A stretch of 64,000 bases of DNA from a virus. The notes under the pieces were generated by a model. That model was not told where the DNA came from and made no database searches. It worked only from the letters and a program-made list of their open reading frames with translations. Positions 1,216 through 63,422 of the stretch are shown here, piece after piece. The stretch spans positions 32,001 to 96,000 of IMG/VR virus record IMGVR_UViG_3300035670_000028. One strand, written 5' to 3'. The position numbers were made by a program, and so were the translations under genes. The stretch's first letter is position 1; every line of letters begins with the position of its first letter.

Positions 1216-1749
1216 ATGGCAAATGAAGAGTTTATAAGACAGCAGATACGAAGAATACTTCTTGAAGCTAACGCTGAAAGTGATGACAGCGAGTCTCCTC
1301 CTGCGCCTAAATCAAAGGCAGAGCCAGCGCCTCAAAGAGGCCAGGTCCAGAAGGGAAAGGTTGGACGCGGGAGAGTTTCAGGTGGTGTAAAGGAAGCTGA
1401 GGCCCTCGCAAATAGCAATCCCGGTGAGCTCATGAGAAAGCTGAAAATATCAGCGGTGACAGGATCAGACGAGGAGAAAGTCGAAAAGATTATGAAACAG
1501 GCTGTGAGCACGCTTAAGTCCACCAAGGGCCTCGAGCAGGCCTACAGCGGAGTCTCACTCGTCAGAGAGCAAGACACGGGCAGTGTCTACGTCAAAATTA
1601 GCCCAAACAAGTTGTCAGCAAGAAATGCTCTCATCTACATGAAGCATGTTCTAGTTGGCGCTTTCAATGCGGGTGTGCTCTCACTTGACAATGATGTGAT
1701 TCCCACCTATGAGGACGACAAGGCACTTATAAAATTTGCCAGTTCATGA
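1216..1749 (+). CDS. Hypothetical protein with N-terminal IRxxIRxILLE tag
   Basis: EEFIRQQIRRILLE. Confidence 0.6.
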   Translation: MANEEFIRQQIRRILLEANAESDDSESPPAPKSKAEPAPQRGQVQKGKVGRGRVSGGVKEAEALANSNPGELMRKLKISAVTGSDEEKVEKIMKQAVSTLKSTKGLEQAYSGVSLVREQDTGSVYVKISPNKLSARNALIYMKHVLVGAFNAGVLSLDNDVIPTYEDDKALIKFASS

Positions 1750-1761
1750 TAGTATTGTTGC

Positions 1762-2319
1762 ATGGACGCAGAAACTATTGAGATCAACTGGAACAAGTAC
1801 GAGTCTCTCTGCAAGAGATTCAACGATGAAGGCATCAACTCGCTTCTTGAGGCGCTTGGTGAGAGGATGGCAGCATGCCCCTCTGCCATCAAGACAGAGT
1901 ACACTGGCTGCTACCCGGGTGGACTCATCGACACGACGCTGAAGATCACAGCCGCCATGAGGAAGATCAACGACACGCTCGATGACAAGCTGCCTACGTC
2001 CTCCGTTCTAAAAGTGGGCCTCTTGCACGACATCGGCAAGGTGGGTGATGAGAGCGCCGACCACTTCCTTGACCAGGACTCGGACTGGCACCGTGAGAAG
2101 CTGGGCCAGCTCTACAAGTATAATGACGAGCTTCCCAAGATGACGTACGCGCACAGGACGCTACACCTCCTTCAGCACTTTGGTGTGAAGCTCACCCGTG
2201 AGGAGTGGGAGGCAGTTGCCACCTCCGGAGGCTACCACCTCGAGGAGAATCGATTCTACGTGGGGACGAAGAACACCCTGGGTAAGGTTTTGTGCTCCGC
2301 CCGCCTTCTTGTGCTTTGA
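1762..2319 (+). CDS. HD-domain phosphohydrolase (possibly degenerate)
   Basis: YPGGL...LLHDIGKVG; first His replaced (GGLIDTTL). Confidence 0.7.
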   Translation: MDAETIEINWNKYESLCKRFNDEGINSLLEALGERMAACPSAIKTEYTGCYPGGLIDTTLKITAAMRKINDTLDDKLPTSSVLKVGLLHDIGKVGDESADHFLDQDSDWHREKLGQLYKYNDELPKMTYAHRTLHLLQHFGVKLTREEWEAVATSGGYHLEENRFYVGTKNTLGKVLCSARLLVL

Positions 2320-2338
2320 TCGCTCCATATTTACTAGC

Positions 2339-2638
2339 ATGAACGAGACGCAGCTTCGGGAAGCCATCAGAGCAATACTTGAGAGCGACGAGGACAAGAA
2401 AAAGTCAAAGAAGAAGAAAAATCTTCTTGTTGAGCCTGACAAGGTGGAGAAGTCCAAGAAGGACGCCGAGGCCAGCCATGAAGTTTCTGCAGGCGGAGTG
2501 CAAGGTGTTGCAGTTCCCCTCGGCGCAGGACCTCACTATCCCGCACCTGACTCTCCTGCTGTGAAGAGAATTAGAAAGCAGATCGACGTTGTCGGTCGTG
2601 CTTTTGGTGGCGCAAAACCCACCAAGAAGAAGAAGTAA
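2339..2638 (+). CDS. Small tagged late protein
   Basis: MNETQLREAIRAILE; ATATTTA at 2327-2333. Confidence 0.6.
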   Translation: MNETQLREAIRAILESDEDKKKSKKKKNLLVEPDKVEKSKKDAEASHEVSAGGVQGVAVPLGAGPHYPAPDSPAVKRIRKQIDVVGRAFGGAKPTKKKK

Positions 2639-2740
2639 CACATTTGAAGATTTGGCGTTTCTTGAACATTTGACAACCGAAGGCTAGTCTTTATTGGCTA
2701 ATGTCAAGAACATTTGATCATTAGAAATTGAGGTAATAAC

Positions 2741-7210: not shown

Positions 7211-8176
7211 ATGGAGCCAATACTTCGTCCGAACCCAGAGAGATTTGTCATCTATCCAATCGTTCACTCTGACCTTTGGCAGGAATTTAAACGGCAGGAG
7301 GCCTCCTTCTGGACTGCCGAGGAGATCGACCTGACTGAGGATCGACGCGACTGGGAGAGGCTCAAGGAGGATGAGCGGCACTTCATCAAGCACGTGCTAG
7401 CATTCTTCGCCGCCTCAGACGGCATCGTCAATGAGAATCTCTGCTATCGATTCGCGAACGAGGTGCAGTACCCTGAGGCCCGGGCCGCATACACATTCCA
7501 GGCAGCCATGGAGACCATCCACAGTGAGACTTACTCGCTGCTCATCGACTCCTATGTGACCGATCCCGCTGAGAAGACACACCTCCTGCGCGCAATCGAG
7601 ACGATTCCCGCTGTCAAGAAGAAGGCTGAGTGGGCCCTCAAGTGGATGAGCAATGACTCACCTTTCGTCCAGCGGCTCCTAGCCTTCGCCTGCGTCGAGG
7701 GGATATTCTTCAGCGGCTCATTCTGCGCCATCTTCTGGCTCAAGCACCGCGGATTGGGAATGAAGGGTCTCACGTTCTCCAACGAGCTCATAAGCAGGGA
7801 CGAGAATGCACACACGGACTTCGCCTTGAAGATCCTCAAGAATCACATCGTCAACAAGCCTGACGTCAAGACTGTCCACAGCATTGTGTCAGATGCTGTC
7901 AGCATTGAGAAGGAATTTGTTTGCGACGCGCTTCCTGTTTCTCTCATTGGAATGAACGCGGATGCAATGTCTGCGTATATTGAGTTCGTGGCCGATCGAT
8001 TGCTCACAGACCTGGGATATCCGAAGCTCTACAACGCCAAGAACCCATTTCCCTGGATGGAGATGCTCGGCCTCGAGGGCAAGACCAACTTTTTTGAGCG
8101 TCGGGTGAGCGAGTACGCAAAGGCCGGCGTCAAGAGCGGTACAACACAGTCACTCACATGGGATGGAGACTTCTGA
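7211..8176 (+). CDS. nrdB: Class Ia ribonucleotide reductase beta subunit
   Basis: [46 protein letters not shown]. Confidence 0.95.
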
Positions 8177-10533
8177 TGCGTTCATTTGTAGTCAAGAGCA
8201 GCGGCAAGAGAGAAGAGATCAAGTTCGACAAGATCACACAGCGCATCAAGCGCCAGTGCAAGGGCTTAAACGAGGAGTATGTGAGTCCCATCGCTGTCAC
8301 TCGTGAGGTCGCGGAGTCCGTTGTCGACGGCATCACGACAGGTGAGATCGACGCGCTGATCGCCCAGGAGGCAGCTCGAATGGTGACGATTCACCCAGAC
8401 TACTCGCTCCTGGCCGCACGCATCCTTGTCACGAGGTGGCAGAAGTCAATCCCTGTCAACTTCTCAGAGAACGTTGGTAGGCTCTACGACAACGTCGATC
8501 CTGTCACTGGAAAGCACGCGCCCCTCGTCAGCAAGGAGCTCGTTGAGCTCATGTCCGACAAGAAGCACTCAGAGCTCGTCGACCGCGCGATCGTCCACGA
8601 GCGTGACAAGAACTTTGACTACTTTGGCCTGGCAACTCTACAGCACGGGTACCTAAAGTCCATCGACGGTCAGCCGGCTGAGACGCCCCAGTTCATGTGG
8701 ATGCGTGTGTCACTAGGCATCCACGGCGACGACATCGAGTCCTCCATCAGGTGCTACGAGGGCCTGAGCACAGGCAGGTACATCCACGCTACACCAACCC
8801 TGTTCAACGCAGGCACACCTCGCGCCCAGATGGCCAGCTGCTTCCTGCAGAGTCTCGCTGATGACTCCATCGATGGAATATTCAGCACCTATAAGCAGAC
8901 GGCTCACATCTCCAAGTGGGCAGGCGGCATCGGTCTACATGTCCACAACCTTCGGGCGAAGGGAAGCCTAATCGCTGGAACAGGTGGCCAGTCTGAGGGC
9001 ATCGTTCCGATGCTCAAGGTCCTCAATGAGATCGCACGATACGTGAACCAGGGCGGCAAGCGCAAGGGCGCTTTCGCGGTCTATCTCGAGCCCTGGCACT
9101 CCGACATTGAGGAGTTCCTTGAGATGAAGAAGAACCACGGCAAGGAGGAGCTTCGCGCTCGTGATCTCTTCTACGCACTGTGGGTGCCAGACCTCTTTAT
9201 GCGCCGCGTGAAGGAGGACGGTGTGTGGTCGCTCATGTGCCCACAGGCCTCACCGGGTCTCGCAGATGTACACGGAGATGACTTCGTCAAGCTCTATGAG
9301 AAGTATGAGGAGGCCGGAAAGTTCGTCCGCCAGGTGAAGGCACGAGACCTCTGGATCAAGGTGATCACTGCGCAGATCGAGACAGGAGTGCCGTACATCC
9401 TCTACAAGGATGCTGCCAACAATAAGTCAAACCAGAAGAACCTAGGCACAATTAAGTCATCAAATCTCTGCACAGAGATCATCGAGCACAGCACACCTGA
9501 GGAGACTGCAGTGTGCAACCTCGCGTCCATTGCACTAAGTCGATTTGTGCACGATGGAAAGTATGACTTTGAGGGCCTCCGACAGACTGCCGCAGAGGTC
9601 ACCTTTAACCTCAACCGTGTGATCGACCGAAACTACTACCCTGTGCCTGAGACTGAGGTCTCCAACATGAAGCACAGGCCCATCGGCATCGGTGTTCAGG
9701 GCCTCGCTGACACGTACGCGATGCTCAAGATGGACTTCACCTCTCCCGAGGCTGTTGAGCTGAACAAGCGGATCTTTGCGACCATATACTACGGGGCACT
9801 TGACGCGTCCTGTGAGCTCGCAAAGGAGGAGGGAACTTACTCATCCTACGAGGGTTCGCCGGCGTCGAAGGGGCAGCTGCAGTTCGACATGTGGGGTATT
9901 GAGCCACATCCCTCTCTGAACTGGAAGTCCCTGAAGGCGAGGATCGCAAAGCACGGTCTGAGGAATAGCTTGCTCCTCGCGCCCATGCCTACCGCTTCCA
10001 CGTCCCAGATCCTAGGCAACAACGAGTGTTTCGAGCCTTTCACGTCAAACATCTACGTGAGGAGAGTCCTCTCGGGTGAGTTCGTGATTGTCAACAAGCA
10101 CCTCGTCAATGACCTTATCGAGGTGGGTCTCTGGGGTGAGGATATGAAGAACGAGATCGTGCGCAATGCAGGATCCATTCAGGAGATCTCCAAGATTCCA
10201 GAGGAAATTCGCAGTAGATACAGGACAGTGTGGGAGATGTCGATGAGGCCGATCATCGATCAGGCAGCCGACAGAGGCGCCTATATCTGCCAGTCACAGT
10301 CGATGAACCTGTTTATCGCTAGCCCTAACATTGGCGCCGTCAACTCAATGCACTTCTACGCCTGGGAGAAGGGCCTGAAGACTGGCATGTACTACCTGCG
10401 CTCCAAGCCCGCGTCAACAGCGAAGGCGATCACCGTCGAGGAGAAGCAGGAGAAGCCAGACACAGAGATGGATGAGGCCGCTCTCGTGTGCTCCCTGGAG
10501 AACCCAGAGGCGTGCGAGATGTGCGGATCCTGA
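8176..10533 (+). CDS. nrdA: Class Ia ribonucleotide reductase alpha subunit with ATP cone
   Basis: ATP cone, ATPTLFNAG, ASCF, SNLCTEI, APMPTAST, KTGMYY, C-terminal CxxC. Confidence 0.95.
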   Translation: MRSFVVKSSGKREEIKFDKITQRIKRQCKGLNEEYVSPIAVTREVAESVVDGITTGEIDALIAQEAARMVTIHPDYSLLAARILVTRWQKSIPVNFSENVGRLYDNVDPVTGKHAPLVSKELVELMSDKKHSELVDRAIVHERDKNFDYFGLATLQHGYLKSIDGQPAETPQFMWMRVSLGIHGDDIESSIRCYEGLSTGRYIHATPTLFNAGTPRAQMASCFLQSLADDSIDGIFSTYKQTAHISKWAGGIGLHVHNLRAKGSLIAGTGGQSEGIVPMLKVLNEIARYVNQGGKRKGAFAVYLEPWHSDIEEFLEMKKNHGKEELRARDLFYALWVPDLFMRRVKEDGVWSLMCPQASPGLADVHGDDFVKLYEKYEEAGKFVRQVKARDLWIKVITAQIETGVPYILYKDAANNKSNQKNLGTIKSSNLCTEIIEHSTPEETAVCNLASIALSRFVHDGKYDFEGLRQTAAEVTFNLNRVIDRNYYPVPETEVSNMKHRPIGIGVQGLADTYAMLKMDFTSPEAVELNKRIFATIYYGALDASCELAKEEGTYSSYEGSPASKGQLQFDMWGIEPHPSLNWKSLKARIAKHGLRNSLLLAPMPTASTSQILGNNECFEPFTSNIYVRRVLSGEFVIVNKHLVNDLIEVGLWGEDMKNEIVRNAGSIQEISKIPEEIRSRYRTVWEMSMRPIIDQAADRGAYICQSQSMNLFIASPNIGAVNSMHFYAWEKGLKTGMYYLRSKPASTAKAITVEEKQEKPDTEMDEAALVCSLENPEACEMCGS

Positions 10534-10548
10534 CAAAACGGAGGAAAG

Positions 10549-11151
10549 ATGAAGTGGACAACAAAGGTATCGCCGCTGATCAAGGAAATTGAGCTCAGGA
10601 AGAGCCCAGTCATCATTCGAGTCAACAAGTTCGATGAGGAGTCTGCCCTCAAGTTCGATCAAGAGGTGGCACAGGCCCACAATACCGGTCAGAAGGTGAT
10701 TCCTGTGGTCATTGATTCATACGGAGGGCAGGTGTACTCCCTCATGTCGATGATCTCAGCCATCAAGCACGCTGAGCTTCCTGTGGCCACGATCGTCGAG
10801 GGTAAGGCGATGAGCTGCGGAGCTGTCCTGCTCACCTTCGGCGCAGACGGCATGAGGTTCGCTGATCCTAATTCCACGATAATGGTGCACGATGTCTCCT
10901 CCATGGAGCTCGGCAAGGTCGAGGAAGTGAAGGCAGGCGCAGCAGAGGCCGATCGACTGAATGAGAAGATCTACACCATGATGGCCAGGAACTGCGGTAA
11001 GCCAGACGATTACTTCCTCAAGATCGTCGATGGTAAGAAGCACGCTGACTGGTTCTTCGACGCCGAGGAGGCCCTCAAGCATGGGTTCGTCAATCACCTG
11101 AGGGTGCCAAAGCTGAACGTCGAGGTCGCTGTCACAATCGATTTCGAGTGA
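10549..11151 (+). CDS. ClpP-like serine protease
   Basis: DSYGGQVYS, AMSCGA, MVHD, ADWFFDAEEA. Confidence 0.85.
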   Translation: MKWTTKVSPLIKEIELRKSPVIIRVNKFDEESALKFDQEVAQAHNTGQKVIPVVIDSYGGQVYSLMSMISAIKHAELPVATIVEGKAMSCGAVLLTFGADGMRFADPNSTIMVHDVSSMELGKVEEVKAGAAEADRLNEKIYTMMARNCGKPDDYFLKIVDGKKHADWFFDAEEALKHGFVNHLRVPKLNVEVAVTIDFE

Positions 11152-11187
11152 GTCACATGGGTCCTAATCCTCCGCAGGCTGCGTGTT

Positions 11188-11194
11188 ATACTTA
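11188..11194 (+). promoter_or_regulatory. Putative late promoter ATA(C/T)TTA (representative copy)
   Basis: Same heptamer upstream of starts at 2327, 12915, 29077, 31051, 33330, 36627, 45439, 46870, 53584, 55830, 58410, 60946, 62478; variants at 14376, 16666, 26406, 48193, 52557 and 60966-60972 (minus). Confidence 0.7.
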
Positions 11195-11222
11195 GACCCA
11201 GAGATTTGACCCACCGTGAACT

Positions 11223-12863
11223 GTGACAGCGTATAGAGTAGTAGAGTCTTCAGGATCTAACGGCACTATTCAGTTTGCCGCTGATGGAGATTTCAGCTCC
11301 AGTGGCAATTTTGTATTCGTCACAGGCTCTGAGCGTGTAGGCATTGGCACTCCTGCACCTCTCGCAAAACTGCACGTCTCAGGAGGCACCCTCTTCGGTG
11401 CCTCAGAGACAGACCTACACCAGTTCACAGGCAGCGCGCAGTTCTACTCAGGACTATCCGGATCCCTCACGAGACTGCCCGATGGCCGCTCCTACCTCGT
11501 CGCCGGCGCGAATGTAACGATCACGTCCGAGTCCAACGGACAGGTGACAATATCGTCGACGGGAGGCGGCGGTGGGAGCGGAGACAGCTACTGGACCTCG
11601 ACCCAGCCCGGCAAGATCTTCACAACGGGCTCAGCTGAGGCGCAGGGCGGTCTCACGGGCTCTCTGCAGGAGGTCTCTGCCGGCGTCCCATATCTTGTTG
11701 CCGGTGCGAATGTCTCAATAAGCACTGGGACAAACGGGCAGATAACGATATCTTCTACAGGCGGTACACCTCCGGGGTGCGGAGTGTACTGGGAGTCTGT
11801 TGTCTCTGGCACAGTGCAGACAACTGGGTCTGTTGCCGTCGGCACGCAGGGAGATCCCTCACAGCTTTGGATCAATGACATCAACATCACACCAATTGCA
11901 AGCGGTGTGATAGTTCCAGGATCCACGCTCACAGACACAGTCCTACTAAATCTCTCGGGGGCGCTGTCTGGCAATCAGTACGGCAGCTTCAACATCGATG
12001 TGATTGGCACCACAAAAGGCATCACGTCCATAAGCAGTCTAGCCACTGCGAAGTGGAACCTCTCGGTGTCCATGCTGCAGTCAAGCGGCTCATTCCAGGT
12101 GGTGGGCGTAACCGAGGTTGACGCGCAGCGGTTCAAGGGACCCACATCTATAGACGCACCGGCGCTCTGGGACGTTAACTTCAACGCCTCAGGGTCTCTC
12201 TATGTCAACACTGCGGGCACACCCACGGACACATCCTGGGGTGCGATCGTCACGAACCAGACGATCATCGATGTTGAGTCAGGCCTCCTCTTCAGCGGCA
12301 AGACTCTCGTGTCCGGATCACTATCGTCTGCGTGCAGCTGCTGCCACGATCCCTACTGGATCTCGAACAGCCCAGACGTCATATTCACAACAGGCTCCGT
12401 CGTCATCGGCGCAGGAAGCACGGGCGACCTAATCGTCAACGGAATCAATCTCACACCGATCAGCGGATCCGCTGTCGTCCCAGGTGGAACCTCGACAAGC
12501 TACAACATCCTCAGCCTCTCTGGCACAATGAGCAACAATCAGTTTGCCACATTCAACATCGATGTGATCGGCAGCACAAAGGGCGTCACAAACATCTCGA
12601 ACGTCTCCACCGCCAAGCGGCTTCTCACTGTCTCCATGGTGAAGTCCGGAGGGCAGTTCGCTGTCGTGGGCATCACAGAGCTCGATGCACAGAACTACAC
12701 CGGACCCACGTCTTCCGACAACGCGTCCCTCTGGGACATTAACGTCGACGTCTCAGGCACCCTTTACGTCAATACAAACACCACACCGACTGATACGGCA
12801 TGGGGTGTTATCGTCACGAAACAGTCAGTGATGGATGTAAACTCAGGTGTACTAATTGGGTAA
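11223..12863 (+). CDS. Fibre/virion protein with GSL-YLxAG repeats and duplicated C-terminal domain
   Basis: Gly/Ser/Thr-rich; RVGIGT.P..KLHV fibre motif; two GL(S/T)GSL..YLVAGANV repeats; two ~170-aa domain copies. Confidence 0.65.
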   Translation: MTAYRVVESSGSNGTIQFAADGDFSSSGNFVFVTGSERVGIGTPAPLAKLHVSGGTLFGASETDLHQFTGSAQFYSGLSGSLTRLPDGRSYLVAGANVTITSESNGQVTISSTGGGGGSGDSYWTSTQPGKIFTTGSAEAQGGLTGSLQEVSAGVPYLVAGANVSISTGTNGQITISSTGGTPPGCGVYWESVVSGTVQTTGSVAVGTQGDPSQLWINDINITPIASGVIVPGSTLTDTVLLNLSGALSGNQYGSFNIDVIGTTKGITSISSLATAKWNLSVSMLQSSGSFQVVGVTEVDAQRFKGPTSIDAPALWDVNFNASGSLYVNTAGTPTDTSWGAIVTNQTIIDVESGLLFSGKTLVSGSLSSACSCCHDPYWISNSPDVIFTTGSVVIGAGSTGDLIVNGINLTPISGSAVVPGGTSTSYNILSLSGTMSNNQFATFNIDVIGSTKGVTNISNVSTAKRLLTVSMVKSGGQFAVVGITELDAQNYTGPTSSDNASLWDINVDVSGTLYVNTNTTPTDTAWGVIVTKQSVMDVNSGVLIG

Positions 12864-12972
12864 AAAATGTTTGTGATCGAGGTGACCTAAAGCTTATTTC
12901 ATTCTTCCATCGTGATATTTAGTGTTGGACTCGAACGAAGACTTGTAGACGCTTTAACGGGAGAACACTAAG

Positions 12973-26381: not shown

Positions 26382-26417
26382 TTAGTACTTTCTAGTACTA
26401 GAAGCATAGTTATCCTC

Positions 26418-27901: not shown

Positions 27902-28062
27902 GAAGGCTCCTGCTCGAGGATGTCCTCCTGATTGCTGCTCTCCAATCCTCTAGACCGAGTGACTGGCGGCACGCACTTCAGGAGGTGCCTCGGGAGGATG
28001 CCCTTTTGATTGCCAGGAAGAATGTCCTGGACTGGGTACCAAGCAAGGAGGAGGCGTCGTGA
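27898..28062 (+). CDS. Small hypothetical protein (54 aa)
   Basis: GTGA overlaps at both ends. Confidence 0.45.
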   Translation: MRRLLLEDVLLIAALQSSRPSDWRHALQEVPREDALLIARKNVLDWVPSKEEAS

Positions 28063-47758: not shown

Positions 47759-48187
47759 ATGAGCGAGCGACCCACGTGGGACAGCGTCTGGATGGACACT
47801 GCCCGAACAATCTCACGCCGATCCTACGACCCACGACACCAGGTGGGGGCCATCGTGGTGACATCAGACAATACCCAGGTGCTCTCCGTTGGCTACAACG
47901 GTAATTACACAGGGGGCCCAAATGAGGTTGAATCTGCGAACCCTGGGGAGTCCGGAATGATACACAGCGAGATCAACGCGCTGCTGAAGATGGACTACAA
48001 CAACCCGAAGCGCAAGGTGATGTACGTCACATTGAGCCCTTGCCGTATGTGCGCGAAGGCGATCGTCAACGCCGGGATCAGCGAGGTCGTGTACGGCGAG
48101 GAGTACAGGGACGCCTCCGGCCTGGATATACTGCGGTCCGCAGGAGTGACAGTGAGGCCTATCAACGAGCCTTCAACTGGGTCGTGA
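47759..48187 (+). CDS. dCMP deaminase
   Basis: VGYNG, HSEINA, LSPCRMCAK. Confidence 0.9.
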   Translation: MSERPTWDSVWMDTARTISRRSYDPRHQVGAIVVTSDNTQVLSVGYNGNYTGGPNEVESANPGESGMIHSEINALLKMDYNNPKRKVMYVTLSPCRMCAKAIVNAGISEVVYGEEYRDASGLDILRSAGVTVRPINEPSTGS

Positions 48188-48231
48188 GCGAGATACCTAT
48201 AGATAGCATTGCGCCTATTGCAGAGAACGAC

Positions 48232-49821: not shown

Positions 49822-49822
49822 C

Positions 49823-50242
49823 ATGGCAAAGCTGAATGAGTCAAAGATCGTTGAGGCCATGCGCCTCGCCTATCTCCGGAGGCTCCACGAGGTGATCGGT
49901 GAGACCGACGTGAAGGACAAGAGGGGTAATGTGGTGATCTCTCCCGGTCTCAAGGTCCGTCACAAGAAGTCACAGTTCGAGTACACTGTGTCATCTGTGA
50001 AGGAGGATCCGAAGTCAGGCGACGTGGTGATCACTCTCAAGAGCCCTGAGATGCCGCGTTTCACGCCTTCCGGTGGGCAGGAGTTCGTGGGCGAGGAGAC
50101 ACCTCTACTGACAGGCGCCGCTCCTACCTCGGGTCACGATGAGGAGCTCGCAGCAATGGCTCAGCCGGACGCTGTCGAGGGCGAGGAGACCGTCTTCATG
50201 GTGGATGAGAAGGAGTTCAAGAAGGACTACGAGGTGAAGTGA
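49823..50242 (+). CDS. Hypothetical late protein
   Basis: KLNE..RRLHE. Confidence 0.55.
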   Translation: MAKLNESKIVEAMRLAYLRRLHEVIGETDVKDKRGNVVISPGLKVRHKKSQFEYTVSSVKEDPKSGDVVITLKSPEMPRFTPSGGQEFVGEETPLLTGAAPTSGHDEELAAMAQPDAVEGEETVFMVDEKEFKKDYEVK

Positions 50243-50937
50243 TGCACATCGACGACGACATCAAGAAGGAGATCCGCCGCTCCCTAGGCCTTCCGGAGCG
50301 GAGGGCAGAGTCAAAGATCAATGAGGCGTACGTTGTTGAGCCCAAGTCCTACACGCTCAAGACCGACTTCCTGAGCGACAAGGCGAAGAAGGCCCGCATC
50401 GACGACTTCAGCGCGAACGCCAAGTCACTAAACGCTGTGAGCGCGAAGCTGGACACCGCCTCAAGGGACGATGCGGACGACCGCTCCTCGGAGTTCAGGT
50501 CGCTCAAGGTCGACGAGGCGCACTGCCTCAATGAGGCCTTCCTCAGGGCGCGCCACTTCGACAACATCGACGATCCCAGGAGCCAGATCTCCATGGACAC
50601 ACTTTCCTTCATGCGCCTCGAGCGGGACTTCGGCGGATTCGACGCGTGGCAGAAGGACTTCATAGCCTGCGGCATGTCGGCACGCAGTGGTTACGTTGTG
50701 ACCGCCTACAACATCCTGCTCGGCAGGTACATGAACCTCGTGGTCGACGCGGGAGGCTGCAACATACCGATCGGATGCATGCCCATCGTTGTTCTCGACG
50801 TCTCAGAGGGCGCGTACTACCGGGACTACATCGGTGATCGCAAGACCTACATCATCGCAATGATGAAGGAGCTCAACTGGGACGTCATCGAGGAGCGCGT
50901 CAAGAAGGCTGAGAGGATCGCGAAGGTGATGGCATGA
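50242..50937 (+). CDS. Fe/Mn superoxide dismutase-like protein, metal ligands degenerate
   Basis: ERDFGGFDAWQKDF..SGY..PIVVLDVSEGAYYRDY..LNW. Confidence 0.7.
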   Translation: MHIDDDIKKEIRRSLGLPERRAESKINEAYVVEPKSYTLKTDFLSDKAKKARIDDFSANAKSLNAVSAKLDTASRDDADDRSSEFRSLKVDEAHCLNEAFLRARHFDNIDDPRSQISMDTLSFMRLERDFGGFDAWQKDFIACGMSARSGYVVTAYNILLGRYMNLVVDAGGCNIPIGCMPIVVLDVSEGAYYRDYIGDRKTYIIAMMKELNWDVIEERVKKAERIAKVMA

Positions 50938-51875
50938 GACCCACATCAAAGACAGGACCGGTTCAGGCGACACAGCACGATCCCATGCATGGGCCAACAC
51001 CCACCTGGGTTCACGGAAAGGGTCGCCGCCCAGGCACGCTTCTCATCGGATCAAAGTCAGGCGCAGACACACGTGAAGTGCCTGCAAACAGCGTCAAGTT
51101 TAAGTTCGGCCCGGACACTGAGATGTTTGGGATTCCCTACACAGACCCATATGCGCAGAATGAGTCTGCCGGCTTCAAGCTCACTAGGGCACAGCTTCGT
51201 GCCATGATCCTCGAGGTTCTCACTGAGGGTGAGGACGAGGGCGGTGATGAAGGCGGCGATGATCTCTTTGGTGACGCCGAGGGCGGCGAAGACGAAGAGG
51301 GCGGAGATGAGGGCGGTGAGGAAGCGGGCGGCGAAGAGAGTGGAGATAAAGAGGGAGGAGATGAGGGTGGCGGCGAGGAAGGGGGTGACGAGGAAGAAGC
51401 TGCCGACGACAGCGAAAAGGACGAGGAAAAGGAGCCTGAGCCCACAGGCCCGGTTGGAGACGAGGTCGATATCGCCCTGAAGGACGTTATGGCTGACTTT
51501 GAGAAGCGCGCCCTGGACGCTGCAAAGGCGAAGGGAGAGCTCAAGCCTGTCGATGCGGTCAAGAAGGAGGGACGTGTGTCCCTTGCACGTCTACTGTTCG
51601 AGGAGGAGGAGACACCGCTCATGGACATGGGCACGTTCGCTGCAGATGTTGCTAGGCTCATCAGCAACTACGACTCCCTCATCGACATGGAGGCAGTGAT
51701 CTACACAAAGGCGAAGGATTTCCTGGAGAAGAAGTACGGCAAGGAGTACTCCGACCAGCTGGAGGATATACTCGCTCGTGAGTACAACATAGAATTCGAC
51801 CACGAGTATGACCCAGAGAAAGCAGAGCAGCCGATCTTCGCAGTCGGCGCCACAGCGGCGGCCGCAGGCGCCTGA
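50934..51875 (+). CDS. Acidic tagged late protein
   Basis: KLTRAQLRAMILEVLTE, Gly/Glu tract, SLARLLFE. Confidence 0.6.
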   Translation: MRPTSKTGPVQATQHDPMHGPTPTWVHGKGRRPGTLLIGSKSGADTREVPANSVKFKFGPDTEMFGIPYTDPYAQNESAGFKLTRAQLRAMILEVLTEGEDEGGDEGGDDLFGDAEGGEDEEGGDEGGEEAGGEESGDKEGGDEGGGEEGGDEEEAADDSEKDEEKEPEPTGPVGDEVDIALKDVMADFEKRALDAAKAKGELKPVDAVKKEGRVSLARLLFEEEETPLMDMGTFAADVARLISNYDSLIDMEAVIYTKAKDFLEKKYGKEYSDQLEDILAREYNIEFDHEYDPEKAEQPIFAVGATAAAAGA

Positions 51876-53563: not shown

Positions 53564-53621
53564 TCCTCCTGTAAATCATACGCATATTTAGTAGAGTCCA
53601 CAGAACGGACTGGAGATCACC

Positions 53622-54971
53622 GTGAAACTGAAGCACAGCACGCTCGAGAAGGCGATACGCGCCGCACTCTTTGAGGACATCACATACCACATGCCTGACG
53701 TGGCCTACGGCATTCACGATAGGCCTGGCCCTAAAGAGGACACAGATCCTGACTTTAAGCCAACTGTTCCACCCCAGGTTCCACTTAAACCCACTGAGAT
53801 GATGTCGACCCAGCTAGCGGACGAGAAGCCGCCTGTTGAGGATGAGAACTACGCGCCCACCTCCGTGTCAGATCTCAGGCAGGCAGCCTCTGCTCTCGCT
53901 TCAATGGTTCCACCTGATAAGGTTGAGCAGTTCTACAGGCAGATGCACAAGATGCTGGATGACGCGAAGACAGCAGACGCGGACGGAAAGACAGTTCGCT
54001 CCAAGCAGGTCCAGTCCGAGATTGAGGGTGAGGATGAGGAGGAAGGCATGATTTTGCGCAAGGAATCAAGGAAGAGGAACCGTAAGGTTGACATGCGGCG
54101 TGTTGCCGAGTCTATCCGAAAGCTCGCCAAGGTGATCAAGGAGGGACGCTGGGGCGACGAGCCGCTGGGCGCAGGTGATGAGAGATCGAGGCTCCGGAGC
54201 CCATACGATCCCGAATACGCCAAGAGCAGGTACTACGATGAGCCTGAGTACCAGGACTTCAGCGACGTCGAGGAGGAGACAGCTCAGGAGGAGGTCGTTG
54301 AGGACGCTGATGAGTCGATCCTGAAGCAGCTCGCCCTTGAGTACGGCTTCGGCAAGGACGCCAACTCCATGAGGCAGGCGCTCCACAGGCTGTTCAAGCT
54401 GATGAACTACATGATCACAAAGATCGGCGCGAAGAACATCGACATCATGATGGGAACTGTTGTGCCAGAGTTCGTGAACACTGCAGTTGAGGCAGGTATA
54501 TTTGAGCCCGAGGACGCGACTGATCTAATGACCAATCCTGTTCACGTCAAGAAACTCGACTCGTTCAGGTTCTACTTCAATGAGCTCTATCGGCCCGTCT
54601 ACCAGAAGCTTCGAGCTGGTGCTGAGAAGTCTGCACGTGATAAGATCGCGTCCCTCGGCATTCCAAAGGCCATTCAGGACACTGTTTTCAATCAGGCCAC
54701 TGGTGGCGCTGAGAGGAAGATGTCGACCATCGTCAAGCGCCTCGAGAAGGCGGGGGTCTCAGCAGCTGATAAGCAGAAGGCGCTTGAGACAGTGCGTCAA
54801 AACTTCACAGCAATTCAGAAGGAGCTGAGCAACATTCCTGCAACCCTCTTGGACAGCGTGCACGATGAGGTCGACCGAATGGGAGACAAGAAGAAGCAAG
54901 AGATGATTCTCAAGGCATTTGGTCTCACCAAGGAGTGGCAGGAGGAAGAAGCAGCACGTGCCAAGAGGTAA
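53622..54971 (+). CDS. Tagged late protein
   Basis: LEKAIRAALFE; IRKLAKVIKE; ATATTTA at 53584. Confidence 0.6.
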   Translation: MKLKHSTLEKAIRAALFEDITYHMPDVAYGIHDRPGPKEDTDPDFKPTVPPQVPLKPTEMMSTQLADEKPPVEDENYAPTSVSDLRQAASALASMVPPDKVEQFYRQMHKMLDDAKTADADGKTVRSKQVQSEIEGEDEEEGMILRKESRKRNRKVDMRRVAESIRKLAKVIKEGRWGDEPLGAGDERSRLRSPYDPEYAKSRYYDEPEYQDFSDVEEETAQEEVVEDADESILKQLALEYGFGKDANSMRQALHRLFKLMNYMITKIGAKNIDIMMGTVVPEFVNTAVEAGIFEPEDATDLMTNPVHVKKLDSFRFYFNELYRPVYQKLRAGAEKSARDKIASLGIPKAIQDTVFNQATGGAERKMSTIVKRLEKAGVSAADKQKALETVRQNFTAIQKELSNIPATLLDSVHDEVDRMGDKKKQEMILKAFGLTKEWQEEEAARAKR

Positions 54972-57152: not shown

Positions 57153-57153
57153 C

Positions 57154-58437
57154 ATGGGCGGCGTAGCAGGACACCTCTCGCACCTCCATGAGTCAATGGA
57201 CCTCACGTTCGGTGAGATCAAGAGCATCCTTCAGGATGTTGCCACGGCGAACATCAGCGCGCTCGAGAAGGTGGACGGACAGAACATCTTCTTTGGCTGG
57301 GACGCGAAGACAGGCCAGGTCCGCACTGCTAGAAACTCCGGAGACATCGCGAAGGGCGGCATGACCCCCAAGGAGTACGCGGACAAGTGGAAGGGTCACC
57401 CAGCTGAGTCTGCGTTCATGAGCGGTTTCTCAGCGATTGAGCAGGCCATCAAGAGCATGAGCAAGAAGGACCTGACCGCGATCTTCGGCAAGAACAATGA
57501 CAGGTACGTCAACGCTGAGATCATGTACAGCGGCAATCCCAACATGATCCAGTACGATGGAAACTACATCGTGGTGCACAACCTACAGTCATTCGCCGGC
57601 GGTGAGCAGGGAGTCGTCGACACGGGAGAGTTCGACCAGCTTGTCGCCGCAATTGAGGGCTTCGATGCGAAGGTGTCTCGGCAGAAGTGGAAGGTGCACG
57701 GACCACAGCTCGTGGCGCTTAGGGACATCAGCGAGGGAAAGCACTACGACAGCCTAGTGGCAGCCCTTGATAGGGCATCAGGTGGAATGTCCGACAGCGC
57801 GACAATCGGCGACTTTGTGGCTGAGAAGCTTCGTGCAGGCGCTGTGGGAAAACTGAAGATGCCCGAGGAGCGCAAGGAGCGGCTCATCGCACGCATCATC
57901 GGCCTCACGCGCGGCGATGATCCAAAGTCCCTACCTGACCTCCGTGAGCTCAAGCAGGGACTGGACAAGGCGACGCAGGTCAAGATCTCTGAGATGGCCT
58001 CCACATCCTCTGCCCGAGGCACAGCATCGGTGGTCGTTGCGCCCATTGAGCGTGCAATCAGTGACTTCGCCATTGAGGTGCTCAGGGGAATGCAGTCGTT
58101 CTTCGTCTCCGACCACGACACCGAGGTGCAGAGGCTGCGCGCTGAGCTCGAGGACGCAGTCAAGAAGCTGCAGTCCGCGAAGGGCGCCGACGCGAAGACA
58201 ATAGGCGACATGCTTGTGAGGCATCTCGAGAAGCTGGGACACGTCGAGAACGTCGCGCAGTCCATCGAGGGTGTTGTCTTCGAGTATCCTCCTGGCAGCA
58301 AGCAGCTCTACAAGCTTACAGGATCGTTCGCCATGGTCAATCAGATCATAGGACGTGCTCGACGGATGAGTGAGGGCGACGCACCTGTAACCGAGTCACG
58401 TAGTCGCGGATACTTAGCTGCATTCCTCCTAGGATGA
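57154..58437 (+). CDS. Ligase-fold (KxDG) protein, DUF6267-like
   Basis: GHLSHLHE, EKVDGQN, EGVVF..YKLTG. Confidence 0.6.
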   Translation: MGGVAGHLSHLHESMDLTFGEIKSILQDVATANISALEKVDGQNIFFGWDAKTGQVRTARNSGDIAKGGMTPKEYADKWKGHPAESAFMSGFSAIEQAIKSMSKKDLTAIFGKNNDRYVNAEIMYSGNPNMIQYDGNYIVVHNLQSFAGGEQGVVDTGEFDQLVAAIEGFDAKVSRQKWKVHGPQLVALRDISEGKHYDSLVAALDRASGGMSDSATIGDFVAEKLRAGAVGKLKMPEERKERLIARIIGLTRGDDPKSLPDLRELKQGLDKATQVKISEMASTSSARGTASVVVAPIERAISDFAIEVLRGMQSFFVSDHDTEVQRLRAELEDAVKKLQSAKGADAKTIGDMLVRHLEKLGHVENVAQSIEGVVFEYPPGSKQLYKLTGSFAMVNQIIGRARRMSEGDAPVTESRSRGYLAAFLLG

Positions 58438-58440
58438 CTC

Positions 58441-59640
58441 ATGCCCTACACAATCAAGAAAGAGAAGTGCAAGAAGTCAGACGGAGGCAGCGGCAGTCAC
58501 AGGCTTCGATACACGGATAAGAGCGGAAAGAAGCACAGCTCCTGTCACTCATCCAAGAAGAGCGCGCAGGGATCAATTGCAGCGATAGAGATGCGTCGAG
58601 AGGAAGACGAGATGAGTGTTAGGGAGGAAGTAATGTCTGAGATCTTATTGAGAGAGTCTATTCGTGTAATTTTAAGTGAAGCAGGCAATCTGTCAGCACG
58701 AGAAATGCAGAATAGAGCAAAGCGTTGGGATATCTTTCTACAAAAGATGAAAGAGAAGTCTCCGTTTTTTGATCTTGAAGACAATCAGTTTGTAATACCT
58801 GTCGCAGGAAATAAAGCACTTGTTTCAGCTCTCAAAACACAGGATCCTGATGCATACAATGCTGCATTTCAAAGTGGAATTACAACGATTCCTCCTGGAT
58901 CGATTTCGACTCCTTCTAATCTTAAGAAAACACCAGAGTTTGGAGGGCTGGCATCGGGTGCTAGACTAGCAAAAGAGCAAGGACAAATCGATCAAATACA
59001 GGCAGCACTTGACTTAGTTTCTCCTGTCAATGTGTTTGTTGGAAACAAGAAGGCAAAAAATGTTGTTGCAGTTCAAAAAGTAGAAGGTACTCCAAAAGCA
59101 GATGCAGTTTTAGTCGATGAAGCAGGTAAAAAGGTTGCAGCTATATCTCTAAAAGATGCAGATACTCCTACACAGATGCAGCAGTGGGGAGGAATCGATA
59201 ACTACGCTGATCATCCTGAAGTTATTGATTTCGTAAATGATCTTAAGGCAGTGCATGCAAATTCGCCCACAGGCAGAATTGAAACTGCATATTTTCGAAA
59301 GCTGAATGATCCTGAATTAGCTAGAAAAATATGTTATGGAAATGGCACAAGCTTTGAAAACAATTGTGACATGATTATTGCGTCCCAGGCACCAATTCAG
59401 ATTAGTAGTTCAGGAAAAATAACAGCAACGAATATATTCTATGCGCCAGAAATACCGTCTGGTGAATGGGCACCTACTTTTTGGGCAACTTGGCGCACTG
59501 GCCGTGGTAAAAATCTGGGTCTAACAGATATTCGAGTTGGAGTTTATCCTCTTGCCTGGGGAAGCACAAGAGCAAACGAGCCGCTCCCATCATCTAAAAA
59601 ATCTGCACGTACGACTAGATCAAGTAAAACCTCTAGATAA
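58441..59640 (+). CDS. Tagged protein with PD-(D/E)xK nuclease domain
   Basis: LLRESIRVILSE; KE..Q, TPKADAVLVD..ISLKD, QQWGG. Confidence 0.6.
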   Translation: MPYTIKKEKCKKSDGGSGSHRLRYTDKSGKKHSSCHSSKKSAQGSIAAIEMRREEDEMSVREEVMSEILLRESIRVILSEAGNLSAREMQNRAKRWDIFLQKMKEKSPFFDLEDNQFVIPVAGNKALVSALKTQDPDAYNAAFQSGITTIPPGSISTPSNLKKTPEFGGLASGARLAKEQGQIDQIQAALDLVSPVNVFVGNKKAKNVVAVQKVEGTPKADAVLVDEAGKKVAAISLKDADTPTQMQQWGGIDNYADHPEVIDFVNDLKAVHANSPTGRIETAYFRKLNDPELARKICYGNGTSFENNCDMIIASQAPIQISSSGKITATNIFYAPEIPSGEWAPTFWATWRTGRGKNLGLTDIRVGVYPLAWGSTRANEPLPSSKKSARTTRSSKTSR

Positions 59641-59659
59641 ACACAGCGAGTAGCTACAA

Positions 59660-59929
59660 ATGAAAAATTCATTAAGAACATCGATAAGAACAATTCTCAA
59701 GGAAGAGATCACCTCTGCCGACAAGAAGGAGATCGAGAAGATCGCCCGAAAGCAGGCAGAACTTACTCTCAGCCGCGAGCTTGGCCCGGACGTCATGAAG
59801 ACCATTCGCGCTGAGGTCGAGAAGGTGACTGAGAAGACGCTCGGCGGCAAGGAGTCCCAGGCTCAGATCGAGGAGCTCGTGGTGGCAGTTGTCAAGCGCC
59901 TCTACAAGGACATCACGGTCGGCAGGTGA
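59660..59929 (+). CDS. Small tagged protein
   Basis: LRTSIRTILKEE. Confidence 0.6.
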   Translation: MKNSLRTSIRTILKEEITSADKKEIEKIARKQAELTLSRELGPDVMKTIRAEVEKVTEKTLGGKESQAQIEELVVAVVKRLYKDITVGR

Positions 59930-60012
59930 CCAAGGAAGACCTCAAGTGGCCGCTAGGCCTCGTGCTCATGCTGTATATGCTGGGCTTCGCCCTGTACAGC
60001 AAGTTGTGCTGA
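59926..60012 (+). CDS. 28-aa single-TM peptide
   Basis: GTGA coupling; MTKEDLKWPLGLVLMLYMLGFALYSKLC. Confidence 0.4.
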   Translation: MTKEDLKWPLGLVLMLYMLGFALYSKLC

Positions 60013-60014
60013 TG

Positions 60015-60095
60015 CCAGAGGTCCTATAGGACATCCGATTGCCGACCATGGTTATACCCATTCGTCGGATTCGAATCAATCTGTGATCATTCTGG
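60015..60095. other. Long imperfect hairpin between convergent genes
   Basis: Nested pairs CCAGA/TCTGG, ACA/TGT, GATTG/CAATC, CCGAC/GTCGG, ATGG/CCAT. Confidence 0.5.
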
Positions 60096-60098
60096 GGG

Positions 60099-60929
60099 TT
60101 ACAGAATCGATCTGATGAGGGCTCGAAGCAGGGCCTCCGACTGCACCTTTGCTCCGCGCCGCTCGAGTGGGCAGCCGGCTGCGATCGATTGTGAGAGGAT
60201 CGTGCCGATCTCCCGCTTGGCAGCGTCGGACATTGGTGGGAGAAGAGCTGAGAATCCCTTGATGTCGCCCTTGCACAGCATGTCTCTCATCTTGGTGCCG
60301 CTGATCTCCACGGTTGCAGTCCTGGGTATACCAACTCCTTGGATGCAGGGTGCCTCGCAGTCAGCTCCCACGCCAGCCCACAGGTCACCGAACTGCGCCC
60401 TCATCGCCTCGTCCGGATAGTTGCCCACGATGTCCACACTGTCGGAGTAGATGCTGATCACAGTCTCGTCGACCCGTGCCGTCACATTGAGGTAGGGCAC
60501 TCTAAATGACTCACTTCCTGCGTCATATGCAGCCTTGAATGCCTCACACACCTCGAACACGTTCCTCACCGGTGCTGGGCCCACGCCGTCGTCTGGAGTG
60601 AGCAGCCTCACGCTGCTGGGAAGGTCGAGATTCGGTTTGAGAATGTTGGTCCAGATGTACTTCATGTCCGCCCCGAACACAGGGGTCTCACCGGGAGCGG
60701 GCACCTCAATCTTGCGGCCACCCTTTGTGAGAGGCCTCTTATCTGATGGGTCCTTGACCGACTTTGTGCCGCGACCAGAGTAGGAGATGAACACACCCAC
60801 CACGTCGTTCTCAGGAAGGGCTAGCTCCTTCGCAGCCTCTGTGACCCTTAGCCCTGCTGAGATCTGCACCAGCATGTGGTGCCCCGCGTGGTAGGGCTTC
60901 GCGCTCATAGGTACCAGACCAATTTTCAT
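60099..60929 (-). CDS. HIGH-motif nucleotidyltransferase (cytidyltransferase-like)
   Basis: KPYHAGH, ISGTKMR; C-terminal SEALLRALIRSIL. Confidence 0.75.
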   Translation of the reverse strand: MKIGLVPMSAKPYHAGHHMLVQISAGLRVTEAAKELALPENDVVGVFISYSGRGTKSVKDPSDKRPLTKGGRKIEVPAPGETPVFGADMKYIWTNILKPNLDLPSSVRLLTPDDGVGPAPVRNVFEVCEAFKAAYDAGSESFRVPYLNVTARVDETVISIYSDSVDIVGNYPDEAMRAQFGDLWAGVGADCEAPCIQGVGIPRTATVEISGTKMRDMLCKGDIKGFSALLPPMSDAAKREIGTILSQSIAAGCPLERRGAKVQSEALLRALIRSIL

Positions 60930-60998
60930 GTGTTCTCTCCGGAGTATACTTAGCTGTGACAGCCATAACTATACTCCTGACCTGTCAAGAGATAACAG

Positions 60999-62279
60999 AT
61001 GAACGAGAGGCAGCTAAGAGGTGTGATACGACAGATTCTGCATGAGCAGAAAAGTCGAAGGACTCTTCTAGAGTACGGAGACGATGGCGATGGCGATGGC
61101 GGTGCACTCTATAAAGCATTTGTATCTCCATTTGTTGATGTCCTTCAGGCAACTAAACTCGCGAGTCAAGGCATTCTCAACTCGATCAAGCTTGTTTTTA
61201 AGACACTAATCACGCTAAGTCCAAAGAAGCTTGTTGAGGCTCGAAATGACTACACAAAAGTCAAAGACACTCTAGACAAGGAATGGGGGCCTCTCATGAA
61301 GAAGGCCAGAGACTCTGTCGAGAACAGCGACTTTGGTCTTGTCACATTTGCAGTTGCTCCGAATCTATTTTTCGGGTATCAGCTTGCAAAGTTTGGAGCT
61401 GACGCGCCAGGAACCGTTGTTGATTATTTTGAGGGTGCTGGGTGGGACGTTCCTCTGGGTGAGTGGATAAGAAAGACACCCGATGAGAGAGACTCAAGTG
61501 GTAGAGGCGGAGGAGGACGTGACGATGATGAAAGTGAGGGTGGCATAATGAAGTCCCTCCGAACGTTCTTCTTTGGTGAGGGTGTTAGTAGCAAGATTGG
61601 ACCTGACGGAAGACTGCTAAGCGAGGCAGAAGAGGATGAGAAAAAGCAAGACAAATCAGGCCTCTCTAAGTCCAACATCAATGAGAAGATTAACGAATAC
61701 TTTGCAGAGACGGGCTTCGATAAGACGCTCGATGATCTAGCCGATCAGTTTGTGAAAGCAAAGCAAAATCACGCTGATAAGCTTGTTGCAGCCTCTAAGC
61801 AGCAGACAGACACTCTCAAGGCATTCGCAGCTGCGAAGGACATCCCTGAGTTCGAGAAGGTTATTGAGTCCTCAAAGAAGCTCGGCGCTGATGTCTCAGA
61901 AATACAGAAGAAAATTGATGAGCTCAAGAGAGACATCACAAAGAAGTCTGAGGATCTGCTCGAAGATCCAAAGTTCAAGGAAGACATCAAGAAGAAAGCA
62001 AAGGGAAAAGAGCTTTCAGATGCCGACATGAAAAAGGCTACAGAAAATGCAGCAGCTAAGGCTGCTGAAGAGGCCATTGGTGAGCTCAAGAAAAGCGTGA
62101 GTGATGCCCTTAAAGAGTCATTCGACCAGATAAAAAAGCAGATACGAGATGAGCTGACAGATGACATGCCAGATCAAAAGAGCCCATTCTACAAGGCATT
62201 TGCCGCATCACCTCGCGGTAAAGAGATTCTTGCAATAGTCGATAAAGCAGTCAACTCTGTGGGTCCCACCGGTGGATGA
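60999..62279 (+). CDS. Tagged helical late protein
   Basis: MNERQLRGVIRQILHE..LLE. Confidence 0.6.
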   Translation: MNERQLRGVIRQILHEQKSRRTLLEYGDDGDGDGGALYKAFVSPFVDVLQATKLASQGILNSIKLVFKTLITLSPKKLVEARNDYTKVKDTLDKEWGPLMKKARDSVENSDFGLVTFAVAPNLFFGYQLAKFGADAPGTVVDYFEGAGWDVPLGEWIRKTPDERDSSGRGGGGRDDDESEGGIMKSLRTFFFGEGVSSKIGPDGRLLSEAEEDEKKQDKSGLSKSNINEKINEYFAETGFDKTLDDLADQFVKAKQNHADKLVAASKQQTDTLKAFAAAKDIPEFEKVIESSKKLGADVSEIQKKIDELKRDITKKSEDLLEDPKFKEDIKKKAKGKELSDADMKKATENAAAKAAEEAIGELKKSVSDALKESFDQIKKQIRDELTDDMPDQKSPFYKAFAASPRGKEILAIVDKAVNSVGPTGG

Positions 62280-62472
62280 TCTCCGCCTAATCATTCGTGA
62301 GATTCTGCTCGAGGAGTTCATCGGCAACAAGGGCGGAGTGAACTACTACCAGATGGGTGGCTCTATCGGAAAACCTGAGCTCTACAATCTAGACTCCAAG
62401 GGAAGGCCCACAAGAGATCCGGGCGTCCCAGGACTCAAAAAGCGTAAGAGAAACAGAAAACGCAAAGAGTGA
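62272..62472 (+). CDS. Small tagged basic protein
   Basis: DDLRLIIREILLEE. Confidence 0.55.
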   Translation: MDDLRLIIREILLEEFIGNKGGVNYYQMGGSIGKPELYNLDSKGRPTRDPGVPGLKKRKRNRKRKE

Positions 62473-62495
62473 CTCAAATATTTAGGAAAGACGCC

Positions 62496-63422
62496 ATGAA
62501 TAGAAGAGAAGAGCAGGTAATCCGCGATTACGTTCGAATGCAGTTGATAGAGCAGCGTCTACACGAGGCGTCGCAGGGAATGCTAACAAAAGCACTCGAG
62601 ACTGTCACTGATAAGATTGAGTCCGTTCTGAGCAATCTCAGGCAGCTAGGCGGCGATCGCAAAGAGCTACTAGACACGCTCAAGAAGAACGATGGAACTG
62701 AAGCCCTGTCTGCTATTCAGAAACAGGGTGGTGATCTCACAAAACTTGTGAGTGTCCTAAAGACTGCTACACCTGAGCTCAAGGAGGGCACGAGAGCCCA
62801 CCGACGTCACCTCCTCGCAGAGGCTAGAATGCGAGTAACAGACAGGAGGGTGCTCATCAATGAGTCACTGACACTTTTTGCTGCAACAGGGCTAGTGTTT
62901 GCAATCATTGGTGGAATTCCACTTGTGCTTAAAGCACTGGGATGGATTGTTGGTAAGACAAAGTTTAAGTCAGCAGCAGAGAAGATAAACAAGGCAGCTG
63001 AGTTCTTCCATCACCTCGAAGAGGCGTGGATGAGTCTCATTCCAAATAAGCCGCTCTACGCTGTCTACATAATGCTCGAGAGTAAAAATGAACCGGAGCG
63101 TGTTGCGAATCTCAAGATATATGAAGAGGATCCAGAGAATCCTGTTAAGGGCGGCGTTGGATCCAGATCAATGACATTTGAGGAATTTGAAAAGTCAAAG
63201 CTGAAAGTTAAGTACGAGAAGTACGCTTACGCAATCATTATGCTGCCGTGGCTCATAAGCGGTCTCACACAGCTCCATCATGCACTGCATGGGTGGCTTG
63301 GTGCGGTGGAAGCCGCTGCCACCGCTGAGAAGACGTTGTTTGTGGGCACTGCCACTGCCGATGTTGTGACAAAGGGTGCTGCAGAGCTATCTGCTGCTGC
63401 TAAAGCGCTGTCTTCTGTCTGA
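62496..63422 (+). CDS. Tagged late protein with hydrophobic helices
   Basis: VIRDYVRMQLIE..LHE; ATATTTA at 62478. Confidence 0.55.
   Translation: MNRREEQVIRDYVRMQLIEQRLHEASQGMLTKALETVTDKIESVLSNLRQLGGDRKELLDTLKKNDGTEALSAIQKQGGDLTKLVSVLKTATPELKEGTRAHRRHLLAEARMRVTDRRVLINESLTLFAATGLVFAIIGGIPLVLKALGWIVGKTKFKSAAEKINKAAEFFHHLEEAWMSLIPNKPLYAVYIMLESKNEPERVANLKIYEEDPENPVKGGVGSRSMTFEEFEKSKLKVKYEKYAYAIIMLPWLISGLTQLHHALHGWLGAVEAAATAEKTLFVGTATADVVTKGAAELSAAAKALSSV

Follow-up and report, generated by a model that had tools for sequence, protein, structure and literature searches.

The 64,000-nucleotide stretch of DNA analysed here (the window) comprises bases 32001–96000 of the 147,186-bp IMG/VR record IMGVR_UViG_3300035670_000028, which is judged 44% complete, and it holds ten genes whose products begin with variants of a single amphipathic helix, referred to below as the tag. 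The helix occurs either in a canonical form, M-(R/K)-I-T-x-x-Q-L-R-x-I-I-(R/K)-E, or as a shorter core, L-R-x-x-I-R-x-x-L. The source is a T4-like jumbo myovirus without a close cultured relative. A megablast search with one core gene against cultured phages gave no match, and the cultured phages closest to it in capsid protein are Microcystis phage Mel-JY01, the Flavobacterium immuto phages, RM378 and XacN1. The + strand carries nearly all the genes of the contig, whose GC content is 0.543. Among them are genes for UvsX, a DnaB-type helicase, ribonucleotide reductase and a DnaE-type polymerase within the window, and neck, sheath, tube, baseplate-hub and tape-measure-like genes upstream of it; the phage also encodes GroEL.

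The tagged genes of the window are listed in Table 1; across the whole contig, there are 17–18. A profile of the tag was built from 16 copies and tested leave-one-out, with reversed and shuffled six-frame open reading frames (ORFs; 217,442 residues) serving as controls. The copies scored 6.3–23.6 bits against a control maximum of about 7, and 15 of the 16 seeds scored above every control. The weakest of the solid set is the copy in the gene at 1216, with 24.5 bits in-sample and 6.3 bits when left out, and a copy at contig position 16901, outside the seed set, reached 13.3 bits. With a plain weight matrix, scores of 8–16 bits form a grey zone, shuffles giving 14–26 matches of at least 8 bits. 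The strong copies are all on the + strand and begin no more than eight residues from the start codon. After removal of the first 22 residues, no significant pairwise similarity was found among 17 of the contig proteins (best E 0.024). The tag is real, it is N-terminal, and it is borne by unrelated bodies. Searches of Pfam and PHROGs assigned no named family to the tagged window proteins, except for the product of the gene at 58441 (phrog_13937, a family of unknown function), and a literature search, using peptide strings and capsid targeting in T4-like phages as queries, returned no description of the tag.

Table 1. Tagged genes, doubtful copies of the tag and ATAYTTA sites in the window
Feature	Position	Strand	Remarks
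Tagged gene, 177 aa	1216..1749	+	Core at residues 6–18, then acidic Pro-rich linker
Tagged gene, 99 aa	2339..2638	+	ATATTTA at 2327–2333, 6 nt before the ATG
Tagged gene, 120 aa	29141..29503	+	Canonical M-R-I-T form; ATACTTA at 29077–29083
Tagged gene, 89 aa	31063..31332	+	Canonical form; ATACTTA at 31051–31057, 6 nt before the ATG
Tagged gene, 101 aa	33362..33667	+	ATATTTA at 33330–33336
Tagged gene, 93 aa	33670..33951	+	Operon mate of 33362; 63-member family
Tagged gene, 107 aa	56829..57152	+	M-K-I-T form
Tagged gene, 89 aa	59660..59929	+	Short-core form
Tagged gene, 426 aa	60999..62279	+	Short-core form, then Gly/Asp linker; ATACTTA at 60946–60952
Tagged gene, 66 aa, GTG start	62272..62472	+	Overlaps the end of 60999–62279
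phrog_13937-family protein	58441..59640	+	Probable tag at residues 65–80; ATACTTA at 58410–58416
Weak tag-like N-terminus	53622..54971	+	12.6 bits, in the grey zone; ATATTTA at 53584–53590
Claimed internal copy at residue 83	50934..51875	+	Below 8 bits, not distinguishable from chance
Nucleotidyltransferase-like gene, tag-like C-terminal helix	60099..60929	-	Unproven, not told from chance
ATACTTA site	11188..11194	+	Upstream of a 546-aa gene of unknown function
Other ATAYTTA sites	6989, 12915, 36627, 45439, 46870, 55830, 62478	+	

An earlier note on this DNA had counted at least 14 tagged proteins in the window, a figure that comes down to ten solid cases and one probable one. The ten N-terminal examples that it named all translate as given, the real start of the second gene being the ATG at 2339 and not the GTG upstream at 2198. 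The probable case is the gene at 58441, for which an internal copy had been claimed. A tag-like segment is present (11.3 bits with the weight matrix, inside the grey zone), but it is probably not internal: an ATG at 58633 stands just before it, preceded at 7 nt by a strong GGGAGG ribosome site, and the homologues in S-CAM9, phiM12 and DLP_6 are tagless and align only from residue 83. For these reasons, we read the segment as the probable N-terminus of a product started internally at ATG 58633. A related-locus search with the 58441 protein found no relatives. The other internal copy claimed, in the gene at 50934, and the C-terminal copy claimed in 60099–60929 did not rise above chance. The latter gene and that at 58441 belong to a trio at window 57154–60929 (427-aa, phrog_13937 and nucleotidyltransferase-like genes) that is syntenic with a hypothetical–hypothetical–cytidylyltransferase trio lying among replication genes in Synechococcus phage S-CAM9. 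Relative to S-CAM9, two of the three window genes have gained tag-like helices.

Beyond this contig, a degenerate DNA pattern for the canonical tag was found in 42 IMG/VR stretches, as against 3 in 596 Gb of prokaryote genomes. The 42 stretches come from contigs of GC 34–60%, and in each the tag opens an ORF with a different body. A tblastn search with 22 aa of the tag gave no match, which is probably an effect of the low-complexity filter. The tag is virus-specific. Two contigs in a Bdellovibrionota metagenome-assembled genome (L087 and L089; JBBAUR010000035.1 and JBBAUR010000009.1) have several canonical tags on proteins of 100–400 aa, and they are probably phage contigs that were misbinned. 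Relatives of the phage carry 2–35 copies of the core pattern each, almost all on one strand. In the complete 284-kb genome G002, about 30 copies lie in two or three clusters, and 25 tagged proteins fall into 22 unrelated groups. A 201-kb relative has some 30 consecutive small tagged genes spaced at 250–400 bp (G004:C1:146900-161000). Among cultured relatives, the tag is at control level, save for one clear N-terminal copy in a Flavobacterium phage, vB_FspM_immuto_3-5A, whose hypothetical protein immuto35A_190 (MW353176.1 113144-113902; L100:5145-5903) starts with the tag core; a literature search gave no proteome paper on the immuto phages.

It might be supposed that conservation acts at the nucleic-acid level, the tag region acting to enhance translation initiation or as a box at which genes recombine and are shuffled. 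T-even internal-protein loci are said to shuffle through boxes of this kind, and two of the copies here, at contig 16901 and 61141, share 93% identity over 44 nt. We find this explanation hardly credible, however, as the tag is kept across the whole of the GC range given above and the codons for Arg, Leu and Ile vary freely between copies while the residues stay constant. Since synonymous codons differ in this way, selection acts on the peptide. Base composition bears also on the suggestion that the cargo is often AT-rich and recently acquired: some tagged genes are AT-rich, but this is not general, the range being 0.42–0.62 against 0.543 for the contig. Two low-GC islands were seen at window 26001–28000 (0.43) and 48001–50000 (0.455), against about 0.55; the second contains a 593-aa ORF without a family match.

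Evidence connecting the tag with the phage head comes from the relatives. The T4 prohead protease family PF03420 (Peptidase_S77) is encoded in all six tag-bearing records that are at least 69% complete. In five genomes (G001–G005), the head module runs in the order terminase, portal, a 280-aa gene, protease, X, A, B, C, D, scaffold and capsid protein, where X, A, B, C and D denote five small genes between protease and scaffold. A reduced-alphabet matrix trained on metagenome tags only was used to rank 761 N-termini, with 15,220 shuffles as the null. Canonical tags occupied ranks 1–35, and ranks 36–42 were exactly genes A and B: gene A is tag-like in five of five genomes (10.1–16.3 bits) and gene B in two of three, the null maximum being 10.3. 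The complete but more distant genome G006 has five tag-like genes flanking its protease, and one of these is canonical (33 bits). Judged by sequence, genes between the protease and the scaffold or capsid genes bear the tag or a close variant of it in seven distinct relatives. A link between the tag and the head is thereby supported indirectly, by the T4-type protease of sufficiently complete relatives and by the tag-like N-termini of their head modules.

On the contig itself (44% complete), neither a prohead protease nor a capsid gene was found. The neck proteins that it encodes share 65% and 52% identity with their G001/G007 counterparts, and gene order is kept, so that the 5′ end of the contig probably lies just downstream of the capsid gene; two tagged genes appear to be inserted between this end and the neck genes. 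A tblastn search with head-module protein A gave no match. By eye, the 131-aa product of contig 105105–105500 (window 73105–73500) resembles that of gene X; the gene is preceded by ATACTTA, and it adjoins a DNA ligase gene, not a head module.

The extreme N-terminal position of the tag, together with conservation of residues 2–4 in the canonical form, would suit a stability or timing signal, that is, a degron or anti-degron recognised by some protease or adaptor of the host or the phage. We regard this as quite improbable, because the short-core form dispenses with conserved residues in its first four positions while keeping the helix, the tag shows no connection with a Clp or Lon adaptor, and the copies in the head module would go unexplained.

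Many of the tagged genes share a short upstream motif. ATAYTTA occurs 15 times in the window, always on the + strand, where 2.1 occurrences are expected; on the contig as a whole, there are 34 copies on the + strand and 3 on the − strand. Nearly all are located 12–110 nt upstream of gene starts, including those of sheath, tube and tape-measure-like genes. Of 17 tagged genes, 9 have the motif in the 110 nt upstream of them, whereas among the remaining + strand ORFs the figure is 18 of 155 (Fisher p = 1.7e-4), which bears out the earlier note's statement that it directly precedes many of them. The window genes concerned are those at 2339, 29141, 31063, 33362 and 60999, together with the operon mates at 33670 and 62272. 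In other tag-bearing contigs, ATAYTTA is upstream of 10 of 36 tagged genes, with no occurrence of the reversed motif and none in a within-gene control stretch. In the head modules of five relatives, it is found before four of the scaffold genes and three of the portal genes. The motif is likely to be a late, morphogenetic promoter of this phage group and, because it also stands before scaffold, portal, sheath and tube genes, the tagged genes are probably expressed late, in keeping with the link to late expression proposed at the outset. The late promoter of T4 is TATAAATA, and it is absent from the + strand of the contig. The two elements are alike in being short, AT-rich and strand-specific, in lacking an obvious −35 box and in lying 12–110 nt before structural genes; they differ in that the element here reads ATAYTTA. 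Whatever the function of the tag, ATAYTTA is a candidate late promoter for the group.

The tagged proteins share an architecture as well as an N-terminus. In the 63-member family of the 33670–33951 product, the tag is invariant and is followed by a linker of 0–70 aa and a conserved small domain, and the AlphaFold model has a helix at residues 5–19, a disordered segment and a domain. The linker following the tag is only slightly richer in disorder-promoting residues than the comparison values (0.63 versus 0.58–0.60). Near-invariance of the tag within families would also be expected of a leader through which some enzyme, not the head protease, recognises many substrates and modifies or processes them, as for ribosomally synthesised and post-translationally modified peptides. 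This seems improbable to us, given that the tagged bodies are folded domains of 60–400 aa rather than short peptides and that the radical-SAM family PF04055 is absent from this contig and from G001 (92% complete), G005 and G006 (100%).

The same build is predicted for a tagged 402-aa protein encoded at contig 702–1910 (window −31298 to −30090; L004:702-1910), between the presumed capsid gene and the neck genes, for which the AlphaFold model comprises a helix at residues 5–21, 35 disordered residues and a domain. Across 15 homologues, Y113-R114-G115, S163-S164-W165, the S-T-S of residues 166–168 and E226-x-E228 are invariant or nearly so. In a structural comparison with VIA, the domain was matched best by Vis (4xzj; 141 aligned, Z 6.7, rmsd 3.6), and ADP-ribosyltransferases made up about 20 of its top 50 neighbours. 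Foldseek returned nothing at E ≤0.001 for the model, and Pfam gave no match for the protein. From the model and the conserved residues, we consider it a probable R-S-E ADP-ribosyltransferase; a weak match in sequence to allophycocyanin-beta (E 0.017) was set aside in favour of the ADP-ribosyltransferase signature. In 13 of the 15 homologues, the N-terminal helix is a different one, and hence tags have been exchanged on one body; in the phages whose homologue has the other helix, neighbouring small genes carry the canonical tag. This exchange, the sharing of the tag by unrelated bodies and the existence of tagless homologues of the 58441 body uphold the view that the tag is portable. A P-loop protein encoded on another viral contig begins with a short-core tag and matches the Zeta toxin family (PF06414, E 3.3e-08; L031:4658-5620).

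The obvious point of comparison is T4, whose internal proteins and Alt enter the scaffolding core by means of a 10-residue N-terminal capsid-targeting sequence (CTS). This is cut off by gp21 after L/I-x-E, Alt being processed at both termini (PMC9026906, PMC3012670). Like the CTS of IPI–III and Alt, the tag is a short N-terminal peptide common to unrelated proteins and ending in L/I-x-E. Like the CTS system, it occurs in phages encoding a T4-type protease, its genes share a promoter motif with head genes, and its cargo includes an ADP-ribosyltransferase-like enzyme, just as T4 Alt is a packaged, CTS-bearing ADP-ribosyltransferase (PMC9026906). Unlike the CTS, it is some 15 residues long, clearly helical and followed by a variable linker, and it is found on 17–35 genes per genome rather than about five. 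The tag consensus has no sequence likeness to the T4 CTS (PMC9026906) or to the N-termini of T4 gp22, gp67 and gp68. Because the sequences differ, we treat the tag as an analogue of the CTS and not as a member by descent. Giant phages of the phiKZ kind (SPN3US, 201phi2-1; PMC9026906, PMC7411985) likewise have many head-internal proteins, among them ejection and inner-body proteins with propeptides, and a gp21-like protease that cuts after Glu. Their proteins are not described as sharing any one tag, and cleavage follows an S/A-x-E motif; moreover, the tag-bearing phages are of T4-like lineage, whereas SPN3US and 201phi2-1 are chimallivirus-like.

We tentatively favour, at somewhat less than an even chance, the reading that the tag is a capsid-targeting and processing signal, an analogue of the T4 CTS rather than a homologue, with the build of an encapsulation peptide. 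On this reading, an amphipathic address helix of about 15 residues, joined to its cargo by a flexible linker, would bring unrelated late proteins to the prohead by docking them to its scaffolding core. Cleavage of the tag by the T4-type prohead protease would follow, at an L/I-x-E site at or just after the end of the helix, and the freed cargo would stay in the head and be delivered with the DNA. L/I-x-E, which agrees with the specificity of gp21 (PMC9026906), occurs within or just after 40 of 40 tags as compared with 30% of other N-termini. The cargo would include the probable ADP-ribosyltransferase and, in a relative, the Zeta-toxin-like kinase. We infer each of these steps, that is, core binding, cleavage, packaging and injection.

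Several observations weigh against capsid targeting. Plain profile hidden Markov models (HMMs) do not lift genes A and B above background, so that their likeness to the tag is physicochemical rather than close, and the N-terminus of the capsid protein was matched neither by HMMs nor by the reduced-alphabet matrix. The connection with the head has to be drawn from relatives because the contig lacks a protease or capsid gene. The L/I-x-E site is not independent evidence because it is built into the helix. The number of tagged genes, 17–35 per genome, is on a scale far beyond T4, and some tagged bodies sit among replication genes in other phages. Finally, an amphipathic helix with a linker is a generic docking design (PMC4594438).

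The last two points also speak for the main rival explanation, in which the helix mediates docking or self-association of a generic kind and its hub is not the prohead but, for example, a factory for replication or assembly, a chaperonin, a membrane site or a condensate that the helices themselves form. The helix–linker–domain design is that of encapsulation peptides, which also drive aggregation (PMC4594438; PMC12339742), and the presence of a phage-encoded GroEL would fit as well. Docking to another hub nevertheless appears rather unlikely, in view of the tag on head-module genes beside the prohead protease in seven distinct relatives and the promoter motif shared with scaffold and portal genes; no gene for an alternative hub was identified.

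The resemblance to encapsulation peptides of bacterial microcompartments (BMCs) extends to their definition, a 15–20-residue amphipathic helix with a poorly conserved linker (PMC4594438), and the tag fits it. As in PduP, PduD, EutC and CcmN (PMC4594438), the helix is amphipathic and portable, the linker is variable and the hydrophobic face is conserved. Unlike these peptides, the tag is virus-specific, goes with HK97-type T4-like heads and has an acidic residue after its helix in a protease-site pattern. A reading in which the tag, by mimicking encapsulation peptides, directs phage proteins to a microcompartment of the host, for example the carboxysome, is very improbable in our view. The contig has no BMC shell gene (PF00936); tag-bearing phages span GC 34–60% and many settings, with one copy in a Flavobacterium phage; and there are 17–35 cargo proteins per genome, with copies within the head module. 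The tag presumably also resembles the N-termini of PduP and PduD.

Two further features of the contig were noted. Adjacent genes at contig 7330–10440 and 10484–13543, outside the window, encode tail-sheath-like paralogues of about 1,030 aa each. A second repeated N-terminus, G-K-L-Y-S-C-S-(R/K)-Y-F-L, unrelated to the tag, is carried by small paralogues at window 41869–42466 and contig 146083–146373.

Returning to capsid targeting, the tag would be best filed with the capsid-targeting propeptides, a kind already known, and what would be unusual is the scale and the encapsulation-peptide-like build. In its broadest form, the proposal is that T4-like jumbo phages forming a large, uncultured, aquatic clade have a single code for loading cargo, a helix plus linker built as in encapsulation peptides but aimed at the core of the prohead, and that they use it to pack and inject about one-tenth of the proteome, including ADP-ribosyltransferase-like and Zeta-kinase-like enzymes; we hold this to be doubtful. 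If such a clade-wide code were true, injected effectors would be predictable from sequence alone. If the tag does load the capsid, it would mark dozens of virion-borne first-strike proteins in each genome, across hundreds of uncultured phages, a class nearly invisible to annotation. The portable capsid address of T4 would then have arisen a second time, from another peptide and with far more genes using it, and phage engineering would gain a second packaging tag, longer and helical.

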